This document shows, in pieces, positions 27,301-42,300 of a stretch of DNA of 64,000 nt. A program made the position numbers. Position 1 is the first letter of the stretch; each line of letters starts with the position of its first letter. The stretch is from Escherichia coli (GTDB taxonomy: Bacteria > Pseudomonadota > Gammaproteobacteria > Enterobacterales > Enterobacteriaceae): the NCBI RefSeq assembly GCF_030013205.1, contig NZ_CP122649.1; one strand, written 5' to 3'.

Positions 27301-30300
27301 GGTCAAGGGGTTACCTGTCTCTCGCTCCCCGCAGTAACATTAATAAAAGTAACTTTTCCTTCCCGAACTTATCAGGAGGGGCAGGAACAAATCACAATGT
27401 CGAGCCCGGACCAGGCACTATTTTCTGAAGATGTCCGGAAAAACTGCGCCGGTACGTGTGTTCTTACCGGCGTTCTAGGCAGACAAAGAACTGAGGCTGC
27501 GCACATAAAACCCCGTCATGCTGGTGGTGAGCCGGATGTGACAAACGGGATTCTACTGCGAAGTGACATCCATATTGGAATTTACTGCTTGGCAGGCATA
27601 ATAAGAGGCAATAGAGTAAAAATCCCGAAAGAACAAGATATGCCATGTACGCTTCAATTAACGATGATATATGTCGGCATCACCTTTTTCCTAATTGTCG
27701 GTTATATCTGCCATCAAATAACTTAGAACTGATTTAGAATTGAATTTGATAAAGCTTACTACAAAGTAGTTTTGTCAATGTTCAACCTGTTTATCAAACC
27801 TACGGTGAATTTTTATGACTGGGAATGGTATCAATACTGTACGCATAAACAACGAAGTGAAACACATCTCAGAGTTAGATCCGGAGATCTCTTTTTCTTG
27901 AATGGAATAAACTGAAAAGTGAAAATAACGAACTGTATCGCTGCATAAAGGAAGCAAATTCTGGTTGGCGTGGTTTTGTCCTTCGTTTAATAGGGGTTTA
28001 TCTACCTGATGGCAAAACAATTGTCATTAAACCCTAGATTATTTGAATATTCCTAAACATAGGCTTAATAAGAAAAGCCACTGAAAAGTGGCTTTTGAAC
28101 TGAGCTGTTCGCGATTTTAATTTCAACTTGGGGTTCTAAGCCGGAACCGCCGAAAATTCCGTCAGCCGATCAACGTGGCTTGTCCCGCGCCCGGTCGATG
28201 GGGTAGACCCAACAGTCGTGTCACTAGCCGCCATTTCGATCACGGCAATGCCAGCCGGACGTCACGTCCAGATTGTTCCGGTCTGGATGAGGCCGACTGA
28301 CGTCTCGGATGACGGGTGGCATACAACTGCTGTGAGTCCTGCAGGGGGGCAGCTGCCTGACCGGACGGCGAGCATCAGCCCATCTCATGTATTAGTCATG
28401 TCAGCTTTGACACTGCGCACGCGACGGCACCCGACCCGTTGCAGACCCCCAGACATATGGAAAGCTGACGCTCAACGTGGAGTTAGCCGGCGCGGCGCGG
28501 CTTCATCGCGCAGCGTCCGTGTTGATGGATGGGTTAGAACTCTCTGGGGCACACATTTGAGAAAGACTATTTTTCAGCCAACGCAAAACCCGCGTTGCCA
28601 GATGCAACCACTGAGACAAATACAAACGGCACTGGACTAGTATTTAGAGCGCCATGCACTTGGCCAGGTTTTGCTATGGCAATATCTCCAGCCTTTAGAT
28701 GAGCGACTTTGCCGCCTCCTTGGTAATACTCAGCCTCTCCAGAGATAACCGTCCAAGTATCTTGGCCGTCCGGGTGAACATGAGCGGTTATTTCTTGCCC
28801 AGGATGGGCATGCCAAACAACAACTGCTGAGTCCTTGGTTTCCAGAACCACTGAACGAATTGGTTCGCCGTCAGACGGACTAATATATTCTGTTACCGAA
28901 AATATTCTTGATTCCATTTCCATATCCACTCCAAAAATCAATTTGGCTTGAGAAGTTATTACAGAACAACTGTATCCGAGAGTTCTACGTTGCCGATAAC
29001 CGGCCCGAAACGGCGGCGCAACGCGCCGCTGTTGGGGGTCCGTGTTCATCGGCGGGTTAGACCTGTGCTTGCGTAAGACGAATATCGACTTCTCGGTCGA
29101 CGTATTTCCATTCCTCTGACGCACGCAGTTCGGAAAGCAGCCTGTTGAACTCAACCTCATGAATTGGCGCGTATTCGAACCAATTCAGAAAATCGAACGG
29201 TTCATTCTCTGAGAGGTCGCGGCAGTGGTGGAGCTTGCGCGCTACTGCAGGCAAATACTGAAGCCCGATTTGGACGTGCTTCGACTGTTCGAAAACGCTC
29301 CGGCGTTCGTCTTGCGTGAGCTCCCACCAAGCTGCGTTCTTCCGGATCGGTATTAGCGCACCGCACGTTGCTTCTGGGCGCGCCAGACCTTGCTGCTTCG
29401 CTACAATTTCATTCTTCTCTGCGCGCATGACATATCGTTCATTGCTGGTTATTCCACGAAGTATCCAGGGTGCATTGGTTTCAGACTGCAACTCTGAAGC
29501 GGATACGACGTTGAGCCTTTTGGCTTCAGGCAGGGGCTCGCCAACTCTCGTTTCGGCCCTGACAATCCGCCAAGGGCCAATGTCTGCGCCGACGAAAGCA
29601 AATAATCGTGTATCCATTTCAATCTTTCATGTGTGAATGTTTTAACTCTTGCAGCTTCGAAGAACCTATCTGCCGATCCCGTGATTGTGCATCATCGCCT
29701 CCGCGCAACTGCGACGACCGCCCGCAGCAATCACATTGAACTTTCGAATCGAAACTGCTGAAGCGAACCTACGCGGACGTACGGCCGCAGTCTGTGCGCT
29801 GCCGGACGGAGCGCTGCCAATTTGCGCCTACTGGCAGGCTGTGAGTGCGCGGATGGGCCAGCGACCTCCCTTCATAGAGGGAGCGAAGCAGGTCAGAGAC
29901 ACTATTGAACGTCCGCTACCGGGAAGATGCTTGACCGTCCGCAACTGGCCGCCTGCCGCCGACCGCGGTCTGGCTCGAAAGCAGTCTGTCAACGCGCCGT
30001 TTCATTGTTGCCATGATCATCTCTTAATCGCGCACAGGCGGCCACAGGCGGGCAGTATGAACCAGCGTCAGTATCCACACCGTTTCGCCGTCGATCTGAT
30101 ACACCAGGCGATAGCTTTCGTGCGGGATCAACTCGCGGGTCCCGGGAATCTTTCCGGCACTGTTGCAAATAGTCGGTGGTGATAAACTTATCATCCCCTT
30201 TTGCTGATGGAGCTGCACATGAACCCATTCAAAGGCCGGCATTTTCAGCGTGACATCATTCTGTGGGCCGTACGCTGGTACTGCAAATACGGCATCAGTT

Positions 30301-39300: not shown

Positions 39301-42300
39301 TCTGTACCGGGCCGTCGACAGCCGGGGCCGCACTGTCGATTTTTATCTCTCCTCCCGTCGTAACAGCAAAGCTGCATACCGGTTTCTGGGTAAAATCCTC
39401 AACAACGTGAAGAAGTGGCAGATCCCGCGATTCATCAACACGGATAAAGCGCCCGCCTATGGTCGCGCGCTTGCTCTGCTCAAACGCGAAGGCCGGTGCC
39501 CGTCTGACGTTGAACACCGACAGATTAAGTACCGGAACAACGTGATTGAATGCGATCATGGCAAACTGAAACGGATAATCGGCGCCACGCTGGGATTTAA
39601 ATCCATGAAGACGGCTTACGCCACCATCAAAGGTATTGAGGTGATGCGTGCACTACGCAAAGGCCAGGCCTCAGCATTTTATTATGGTGATCCCCTGGGC
39701 GAAATGCGCCTGGTAAGCAGAGTTTTTGAAACGTAAGGCCTTTGAATAAGACAAAAGGCTGCCTCATCGCTAACTTTGCAACAGTGCCCTTTGTTAGTAT
39801 CAAGTGGCAGGAGGCCCCGATCATGTCAAAACAAGCCGTTTTCACGATGAAGCTGGAGCCTGAGTTGCGCGCCGAGTTTATGGCCGAAGCCGAGGCGGCC
39901 CATCGCCCGGCGTCGCAAGTGCTGCGCGAGCTGATGCGCGAGTTCGTTCAGCGCCAGCGCGAGTCGCGCGAGTACGACGAGTTCCTGCGCCGCAAGGTCG
40001 AAGCCGGCCGGGCTTCGATGCGCGCTGGATTGGGGCGGTCGAACGATGAAGTTGAGGCCGAATTCGCCGCACGGCGTGCCAGTGTGGCGAGCCAGAACAG
40101 GAGTAAATAAAAATGAGTTTAATTATTAAAGCGAGAAACATACGCTTGGATTATGCTGGGCGTGATGTTTTGGATATTGATGAATTGGAAATTCACTCTT
40201 ATGACCGTATTGGTCTTGTGGGTGATAACGGAGCAGGAAAGAGTAGTTTACTCAAAGTACTTAATGGCGAAATTGTTTTAGCCGAAGCGACATTACAGCG
40301 TTTTGGTGATTTTGCACATATCAGCCAACTGGGCGGAATCGAAATAGAAACGGTCGAAGACCGGGCAATGTTATCTCGCCTTGGTGTTTCCAATGTACAA
40401 AACGACACAATGAGTGGCGGAGAGGAAACTCGTGCAAAAATTGCTGCCGCATTTTCCCAACAAGTACATGGCATTCTAGCGGATGAACCAACCAGCCACC
40501 TTGATCTCAATGGAATAGATCTACTTATTGGTCAACTTAAAGCATTTGATGGAGCATTACTTGTTATCAGTCATGACCGATATTTTCTTGATATGGTTGT
40601 AGACAAGATATGGGAGTTAAAAGACGGTAAAATTACGGAATATTGGGGTGGTTACTCGGATTACTTGCGTCAAAAAGAAGAAGAGCGACAACACCAAGCC
40701 GTAGAATATGAGCTGATGATGAAGGAACGGGAGCGATTAGAATCTGCTGTGCAAGAAAAACGCCAGCAAGCTAATCGATTAGACAATAAGAAAAAAGGAG
40801 AAAAATCCAAAAACTCTACCGAAAGTGCTGGACGACTTGGGCATGCAAAAATGACTGGCACCAAGCAAAGAAAACTGTATCAGGCAGCTAAGAGTATGGA
40901 AAAGCGTTTGGCTGCATTAGAAGATATTCAAGCACCAGAGCATTTGCGTTCTATTCGTTTTCGTCAAAGTTCAGCCCTAGAACTGCACAATAAGTTCCCG
41001 ATTACGGCAGATGGTCTGAGCTTAAAATTTGGTAGCCGTACTATCTTTGATGACGCTAACTTTATAATACCGCTTGGCGCTAAAGTCGCTATAACTGGAT
41101 CGAATGGAACAGGGAAAACGTCCTTGTTAAAAATGATATCAGAACGTGCTGATGGATTAACCATATCTCCAAAAGCTGAAATTGGCTACTTTACACAAAC
41201 AGGATATAAATTTAACACGCATAAATCTGTGCTCTCCTTTATGCAGGAAGAGTGCGAGTACACAGTTGCGGAAATTCGTGCAGTATTGGCTTCAATGGGG
41301 ATCGGAGCGAATGATATTCAAAAAAACTTATCCGACTTATCGGGAGGTGAAATCATCAAACTGCTTTTATCCAAAATGCTTTTAGGAAAATATAATATTT
41401 TGCTTATGGATGAACCAGGAAACTATCTTGACCTAAAAAGTATTGCCGCATTAGAAACAATGATGAAGTCCTATGCAGGAACTATTATCTTCGTATCTCA
41501 TGACAAGCAATTGGTCGATAATATTGCTGACATTATCTACGAGATCAAAGACCACAAAATCATCAAGACTTTTGAGAGAGATTGTTAATGATAGCCAATC
41601 TAATCCGAACATTAATTATTGAACTCTTTAAAGGAAATTAAAAATGACAATTCAAGATATTCAATCACTTGCTGAAGCACACGGCTTGTTGCTTACGGAC
41701 AAAATGAATTTCAATGAAATGGGCATTGATTTTAAGGTCGTTTTTGCTCTTGATACAAAGGGGCAACAATGGTTGCTGCGTATTCCTCGTCGTGATGGCA
41801 TGAGGGAACAAATCAAGAAAGAAAAACGCATTTTAGAATTGGTAAAAAAACATCTTTCTGTAGAGGTTCCTGATTGGAGAATTTCATCTACAGAATTAGT
41901 GGCTTATCCCATACTTAAAGATAATCCTGTTTTAAATTTGGATGCTGAAACCTATGAAATAATTTGGAATATGGACAAAGATAGCCCGAAATACATAACA
42001 TCTTTGGCAAAAACCTTATTTGAAATCCATAGTATTCCTGAAAAAGAAGTTCGGGAAAATGATTTGAAAATTATGAAACCTTCAGATTTAAGACCTGAAA
42101 TAGCAAACAATTTGCAGTTAGTAAAATCTGAAATTGGTATAAGTGAGCAATTGGAAACCCGCTACAGAAAATGGTTGGATAATGATGTTCTATGGGCAGA
42201 TTTCACCCAATTTATACATGGCGATTTATATGCTGGGCATGTACTAGCTTCAAAGGATGGAGCTGTTTCAGGCGTTATTGATTGGTCAACAGCCCATATA

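Follow-up and report, generated by a model that had tools for sequence, protein, structure and literature searches.

Two toxin-antitoxin remnants beside IS26 in Escherichia coli: probable halves of one Tn5501.3-type parDE module, with the antitoxin gene joined to msr(E)-mph(E)

Introduction

The DNA considered here (the window) is a stretch of 64,000 nucleotides from Escherichia coli contig NZ_CP122649.1 (RefSeq assembly GCF_030013205.1), and the subject of this report is a pair of toxin-antitoxin remnants that it carries. One is the 3' part of a parE toxin gene that abuts a copy of the insertion sequence (IS) IS26; the other, just beyond a second copy of IS26, is a ParD-like antitoxin gene followed almost directly by the macrolide-resistance genes msr(E) and mph(E). 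An earlier note on this DNA had described a RelE/ParE-type toxin fragment and a complete antitoxin-like gene of the ribbon-helix-helix (RHH) type, both left over from modules broken by IS26. It is very probable, in our assessment, that a single parDE module gave rise to both the toxin stub and the antitoxin gene, and that the antitoxin gene was fused to msr(E) and the region then scrambled by IS26; the antitoxin gene may now serve mainly as a leading cistron. The components, namely Tn5501.3, its parDE module, IS26 and the msr(E)-mph(E) genes of Acinetobacter plasmids, are known; a Tn5501 derivative with an antitoxin-fused msr(E)-mph(E) appears to be undescribed in the literature searched.

The toxin and antitoxin remnants

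The minus-strand translation of 30024-30155, GKIPGTRELIPHESYRLVYQIDGETVWILTLVHTARLWPPVRD followed by a stop, is identical to residues 52-94 of the 94-residue ParE of Tn5501.3. It matches Pfam family PF05016 at 23.9 bits (cut-off 23; E 6e-5) over profile positions 60-89 of 89, and meets the left inverted repeat of IS26 copy 1 at 30155/30156, so that both the position and the family given in the earlier note are borne out. The intact parent toxin scores 71.7 bits over profile positions 1-89; among solved structures ParE2 is the closest to it (5cw7_B, E 1.8e-10, a whole-length match). A complete ParE coding sequence (CDS) has some 90-100 residues and its own start codon; the remnant has neither and is a pseudogene. 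On its sequence it is dead, because the start codon, the promoter and 51 of the 94 codons are absent. A 240-residue open reading frame (ORF) at 30024..30746 on the minus strand is an IS26 antisense ORF that runs in frame into the remnant and is not a gene.

The antitoxin gene begins 34 bp past the right end of IS26 copy 2 and its stop lies 2 bp before the ATG of msr(E) at 40113. Over residues 1-91 its product agrees 100% with the native protein of 92 residues, and the last native alanine is replaced by NRSK; the gene is where the earlier note had placed it, but it is not complete in the sense claimed there. The window holds no partner toxin for it, as had been noted, and no second copy of toxin or antitoxin. 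The ParD-like antitoxin of Tn5501.3 has been reported to lack a Pfam match and to have an RHH fold like ParD by HHpred (Lima-Mendez et al., 2020; PMC7157771). In our searches it scored 16.2 bits against Pfam RHH_9, under the 23.4 cut-off, matched CopG-family chains of the PDB weakly (E 0.014-0.06), and aligned with 7etr by hhalign at 45.7% probability over residues 8-45. An AlphaFold model (predicted local distance difference test, pLDDT, 81) has an N-terminal coil and then helices at 13-26, 30-67 and 74-94. The assignment as an antitoxin rests mainly on the position of the gene upstream of ParE, and an RHH fold is weakly supported.

A single parDE module in a single transposon copy

The element of plasmid pAKD4 has been named Tn5501.3 and placed in the Tn3000 subgroup of the Tn3 family, with a parD-parE module; its layout is <T <A tnpR> tnpA> and its toxin is a ParE of family PF05016 (Lima-Mendez et al., 2020; PMC7157771). 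In pAKD4 (GQ983559.1) and pKAM330_1 (AP023399.1) the 92-residue antitoxin gene and the 94-residue toxin gene overlap by 4 bp and are transcribed divergently from tnpR-tnpA. The antitoxin lies upstream of the overlapping toxin gene in both plasmids and in nine of the ten listed contexts. Plasmid searches with the toxin piece and with the antitoxin piece returned nearly the same records (33 and 35), with Betaproteobacteria, Aeromonas and Pseudomonas as the predominant sources, and the two sequences are adjacent in almost all of them. In intact copies the toxin gene directly follows the antitoxin gene; in the window 9.6 kb separate the two pieces, which lie on opposite strands.

Direct BLAST of pAKD4 against the window accounts for both pieces. 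Positions 61-2086 of pAKD4 correspond to window 28130-30155 (99.95%, same orientation), 2242-2548 to window 40095-39789 (100%, inverted) and 4129-5086 to window 43541-44498 (99.9%, same orientation), and pKAM330_1 carries the tnpA block on to window 45817. The transposon DNA missing between the first two blocks amounts to 155 bp, which is 2 bp plus the first 51 toxin codons; a second gap of 1580 bp (res, tnpR and the 5' part of tnpA) is present in contig L009 and in pAKD4. The outer ends are undisturbed: 38-bp terminal repeats, as expected of the Tn5501 group, are flanked on both sides by the identical 5-bp duplication AACTT, and their intactness at both ends points to one transposon copy and one insertion. 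Window 28130-45816 is a Tn5501.3-like Tn3-family transposon present as a single copy rearranged in place and, with tnpA truncated and tnpR and res gone, a defective derivative. The comparison with intact parDE loci that the earlier note proposed does trace the two pieces to one module.

It could be supposed instead that two unrelated toxin-antitoxin modules were each broken by IS26 independently, as the distance between the pieces, their opposite strands and the nearness of each to an IS26 end might suggest, and the earlier note had likewise treated them as separate modules. We regard this as very improbable. Adjacent, overlapping genes of Tn5501.3 match the pieces at 99.9-100% identity, the stretch that separates the two pieces there is exactly the 155 bp lost here, both pieces lie within intact transposon ends and duplications, and the toxin-proximal end of the antitoxin gene joins msr(E) DNA, not IS26. 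The pAKD4 alignment thus assigns both pieces to the single parDE of one Tn5501.3-like copy.

Over a length of 22 kb, plasmid NZ_CP122645.1 of E. coli ETEC4079, isolated from a pig in Belgium, matches the window with 100% identity, and the backbone of the window also matches IncHI1 plasmids such as that of S. Typhi CT18 (NC_003384.1); judged by these matches, the host plasmid is of IncHI1 type. The features of the locus are collected in Table 1. The cupin-domain passenger gene is found in intact Tn5501.3-like copies as well, and in such copies the chlorite-dismutase-family gene adjoins parE.

Table 1. Coordinates of the transposon, its remnants and inserted segments in the window (SD, Shine-Dalgarno sequence; SNP, single-nucleotide polymorphism)
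Feature	Position	Strand	Remarks
Left target-site duplication AACTT, 5 bp	28125-28129		Directly beside left terminal repeat
Left terminal inverted repeat, 38 bp	28130-28167	+	pAKD4 61-98 also matches 45816-45779 inverted
Cupin-domain passenger gene	28567-28923	-	Pfam Cupin_2, E 4e-14; RefSeq CDS of 357 bp in identical record
Chlorite-dismutase-family passenger gene	29057-29617	-	Pfam PF06778, E 5e-9
parE remnant, codons 52-94 and stop	30024-30155	-	Cut by left end of IS26 copy 1
IS26 copy 1	30156-30975	+	IS positions 386 and 764 unlike those of copies 2 and 3
IS26-associated resistance segment	30976-38968		From ORFs and annotation
IS26 copy 2	38969-39788	+	Identical to copy 3
Surviving native antitoxin-upstream DNA, 34 bp	39789-39822	+	SD GGAGG 39811-39815
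ParD-like antitoxin gene, fusion form, 95 residues	39823-40110	+	Codons 1-91 native (39823-40095)
NRSK and stop of antitoxin fusion	40096-40110	+	Encoded by msr(E)-upstream DNA
Native msr(E)-upstream DNA, only 17 bp kept	40096-40112	+	SD AGGAG 40099-40103
msr(E), ABC-F ribosomal protection gene	40113-41588	+	
mph(E), macrolide phosphotransferase gene	41644-42528	+	Acinetobacter-derived segment stops at 42723
IS26 copy 3	42724-43543	-	Inverted relative to copies 1 and 2
3' part of Tn5501 tnpA	43544-45784	+	Matched by pAKD4 4129-5086 and L002 144-2420, 99.9%
Right terminal inverted repeat, 38 bp	45779-45816	-	Right AACTT duplication at 45817-45821

The junction between the antitoxin gene and msr(E)

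Alignment of the window with pAKD4 and with ordinary msr(E) upstream regions places the junction between transposon DNA and msr(E) DNA at 40095/40096. The native antitoxin gene ends GCG AGC CAG GCG TGA (ASQA, stop), with the GTG start codon of the toxin overlapping the stop; the window reads GCG AGC CAG / AAC AGG AGT AAA TAA AA ATG (ASQNRSK, stop, then msr(E)). In the native module 2 bp separate this point from the start codon of the toxin; in the window 17 bp separate it from that of msr(E), whose SD falls within the 3' end of the antitoxin ORF. The content of G+C (GC) falls from about 0.64-0.68 to about 0.38 across this point, in agreement with the earlier statement that msr(E) follows directly and differs in composition. 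There is no IS end at 40095/40096, which indicates that this junction was not made by IS26. As far as the sequence tells, IS26 made one of the two breaks only; the description of the pieces as leftovers of IS26 breakage is correct as to their being leftovers and as to the cut in the toxin gene, and incorrect as to the break on the antitoxin side.

The msr(E)-mph(E)-mobA-rep block from which the msr(E) side derives matches a 7.66-kb Acinetobacter plasmid unit with a Rep_3 gene. The usual 422-bp msr(E) upstream region, seen in L039, is absent from the window. That region contains, at L039 6396-6470, a terminator-like hairpin with a 14-bp stem and a T-run, after which come an SD of its own and a seven-codon mini-ORF (MLAFVFT) some 40 bp before msr(E); hairpin and mini-ORF may form a leader or attenuator of ordinary msr(E).

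The 2-bp gap, the placing of the msr(E) SD inside the end of the antitoxin ORF and the recurrence of this arrangement on 29 contigs would also be expected if the RHH gene were the native regulator or partner of msr(E) in an original operon. This explanation is hardly credible. About 870 plasmids in PLSDB match the start of msr(E), and the antitoxin is upstream in one only, NZ_CP122645.1; of the 41 complete E. coli genomes that carry msr(E), again a single one, CP122645.1, has it there. This finding argues that the RHH gene is not a native partner of msr(E). The composition changes sharply at the junction, the first 91 codons are 100% identical to those of a Tn5501 antitoxin that is normally paired with ParE, and the Acinetobacter source plasmids have other DNA upstream of msr(E). 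An operon of the RHH gene with msr(E), which the earlier note had considered, thus exists in this lineage, on the 29 contigs, but is not a property of msr(E) in general.

Other carriers of the fusion

An exact-sequence look-up of the 95-residue fusion protein returned 36 index blocks on 29 public contigs, under the label 'MULTISPECIES … Enterobacteriaceae'. In L009-L014 and L016 the fusion stands beside intact tnpR and tnpA, and in L009-L011 the backbone to the right of the transposon is that of the window. Past mph(E), L009 continues through two small ORFs and mobA into the start of a Rep_3 gene, and ends 1 bp from a widespread junction between truncated rep and IS26 (CP082616.1 and elsewhere). 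Since the junction lacks an IS end and occurs in contigs with intact tnpR, tnpA and res, the fusion would predate the IS26 rearrangements of the window.

L009 also gives the ancestral orientation. Its positions 1-8386 map to the window reversed and 9967-12901 map forward; the tnpA arm and the segment 39789-42723 map oppositely, which indicates that the antitoxin-msr(E)-mph(E) block is inverted in the window, relative both to L009 and to the two transposon arms. The inverted block lies between IS26 copies 2 and 3, which are identical in sequence and inversely oriented. Both junctions of copy 3 are unique to NZ_CP122645.1 within PLSDB. The junction of the parE remnant with IS26 is more widely shared, being common to Salmonella plasmid pSA20030575.1, which has the same backbone and the same left transposon end as the window, and to the IncX1 E. 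coli plasmid p94EC-4.

Further variants were seen among the carriers. L008 and L012 (GCA_051842185.1 and GCA_049102235.1) contain the same transposon variant with another flank, near an aac(3)-type gene, in the order right terminal repeat, tnpA, tnpR, antitoxin fusion, msr(E), mph(E); this different flank indicates that the variant is not limited to the IncHI1 insertion site. L016 (JGI metagenome 3300028486) has tnpR, the 95-residue fusion and msr(E) at 1243-3162, diverges 39 bp past the msr(E) stop and is without mph(E). In L015 (1-1311, 1312-1328) and nine similar places an IS lies inside IS26, 17 bp from the right end of the latter and directly upstream of the antitoxin-msr(E) fusion; it is identical to window 57341-58651, which encodes a DDE_Tnp_1 transposase.

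Transcription of the fused operon

Of its own upstream DNA msr(E) retains only the SD, so transcription would have to come from upstream, through the antitoxin gene. We infer that the antitoxin gene now acts mainly as a leading cistron, with msr(E)-mph(E) transcribed through it; translation of the antitoxin gene probably continues. The ancestral form would have had all of the antitoxin-upstream and res region for the transcription of msr(E). In the window the 34 surviving base pairs contain an extended -10-like motif, TGTTAGTAT, at 39792-39800. The right end of IS26 copy 2 (39788/39789) cuts the transposon inside a palindromic GTATATAC core (pAKD4 about 2549-2560). By position this core is probably res subsite I of Tn5501, since the toxin-antitoxin genes have been reported to follow closely on res I (Lima-Mendez et al., 2020; PMC7157771).

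The same history could have left the antitoxin ORF a silent relic that neither regulates nor protects, with msr(E)-mph(E) expressed only by read-through from tnp26 or not at all. A standard sigma-70 scan of 39600-40300 found no sigma-70 promoter, and IS26 took everything beyond 34 bp upstream, including the promoters probably embedded in res (PMC7157771). The tnp26 gene of IS26 copy 2 reads in the same direction, and read-through from it would be an alternative source of msr(E) transcripts. Against this, the antitoxin gene has kept its SD, its start codon and 91 of its 92 codons, and the extended -10-like motif survives; moreover, a read-through transcript that reached msr(E) would also include the antitoxin cistron with its SD. 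We consider the silent relic a serious possibility, if somewhat the less probable state of affairs.

A stronger version of the leading-cistron reading would have the Tn5501 antitoxin taken over by a macrolide-resistance operon as a first cistron with an autoregulatory role, possibly with protection against an incoming ParE of the Tn5501 family. This we think rather unlikely. If true, it would mean that msr(E)-mph(E) had taken the place of a toxin gene, with the two start codons in almost the same position, and that these genes were driven by a toxin-antitoxin promoter under antitoxin control. Cross-regulation by the orphan antitoxin, which the earlier note had raised, is speculative.

Proposed order of events

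The order of events given here is inferred and is the most economical history. IS26 would first have entered parE at codon 51/52, and an IS26-bounded msr(E) unit originating from a small Acinetobacter Rep_3 plasmid would have joined at the parE-IS26 site. Next, an IS-independent deletion may have fused antitoxin codon 91 to msr(E) and created the 95-residue variant followed by msr(E)-mph(E); lost in it would be 405 bp of DNA upstream of msr(E), together with one IS26 and 155 bp of the transposon. In another ordering the joining of msr(E)-mph(E) to the antitoxin gene comes first, and the truncation of the toxin belongs to the later activity of IS26. Later IS26 deletions would have taken out res, tnpR and the 5' part of tnpA as well as the mobA-rep part, and inversion of the block would have followed, whether through replicative transposition within the molecule or through recombination of two inverted IS26 copies. 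A unit comprising IS26 copy 1, which differs by two SNPs, and floR/strAB would also have been incorporated.

Several observations weigh against this reconstruction. The absence of a sigma-70 promoter, with an extended -10-like motif only, bears on the part played by the antitoxin gene in transcription, and the RHH fold was confirmed neither by the AlphaFold model nor by fold searches, the latter being uninformative. The ancestral left half, from toxin remnant to truncated rep, was never seen on one contig. The 8-bp flanks of the IS26 copies are ATCTTTCC, TCCGAGAA, CCCGCAGG, CTTTGTTA, AGAAAAAC and AACTTCTA, and none of the six pair as 8-bp duplications, direct or inverted; with no surviving duplications the order of the IS26 events cannot be fixed. 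The unpaired flanks would fit later adjacent deletions or homologous recombination. Finally, insertion of IS26 into parE predicts a reciprocal junction in which IS26 ending in CAACAGTGCC is followed by the duplicated ATCTTTCC and then by the 5' part of parE beginning CGGCTTGCCCAG, and this junction is absent from PLSDB.

IS26 copies, inserted segment and repeats

The SNPs that set IS26 copy 1 apart are A/C at position 386 and T/C at position 764, and two transposase residues are changed. The segment between copies 1 and 2 presumably consists of a partial ISCR2, a DUF3363 gene, floR, lysR, a second partial ISCR2, strB, strA, IS1133 and a truncated Tn5393 tnpR. A perfect 300-nt direct repeat of partial ISCR2 type (30976-31275 and 35260-35559) brackets floR-lysR. 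Another 300-nt direct repeat, with 98% identity and copies 2.4 kb apart (16219-16518 and 18642-18941), lies in the plasmid backbone.

Significance and comparison with known systems

'Orphan' toxin-antitoxin fragments in a resistance region could here be traced to one named transposon, and much of the build-up of the multiresistance island could be reconstructed; in other respects the island is an example of the ordinary scrambling of resistance plasmids. The fusion may alter the expression of macrolide resistance in a lineage that occurs in Salmonella and in E. coli from pigs. It also provides a natural case of a transposon-borne addiction module from which the toxin has been lost and in which the antitoxin has been kept.

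The closest known system is Tn5501.3 of the IncP-1 plasmid pAKD4, to which every part kept in the window is 99.9-100% identical in nucleotide sequence, with the same 38-bp repeats, the same cupin and chlorite-dismutase-family passengers and the same toxin and antitoxin sequences. The window copy differs in the absence of res, tnpR, 1.1 kb of 5' tnpA sequence and toxin codons 1-51, in having the antitoxin gene fused to msr(E)-mph(E) and inverted, in the addition of three IS26 copies and the floR/strAB unit, and in the loss of its own transposition. On the side of the resistance genes the counterpart is the IS26-bounded unit of msr(E), mph(E), mobA and truncated rep (e.g. CP082616.1), in which msr(E)-mph(E) is identical to that of the window. 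Between IS26 and msr(E) the usual enterobacterial form of this unit has 422 bp of native DNA; the window has 17 bp, with the antitoxin gene in place of the rest.

Among solved toxin-antitoxin complexes, ParE2 of the ParE2-PaaA2 system of E. coli O157 (PDB 5cw7) matches the intact Tn5501 toxin over its full length at low identity. Its partner PaaA2, which is without a DNA-binding domain, aligns weakly with the C-terminus of the antitoxin, below significance, and the RHH region of the CopG-family antitoxins 6iya and 7etr aligns weakly with the N-terminus, likewise below significance. Orphan antitoxins, or 'anti-addiction' modules, are a general concept, and the window resembles them in having an apparently intact antitoxin gene without its toxin. 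It departs from the concept in that the most obvious consequence here would be in cis, on msr(E)-mph(E).

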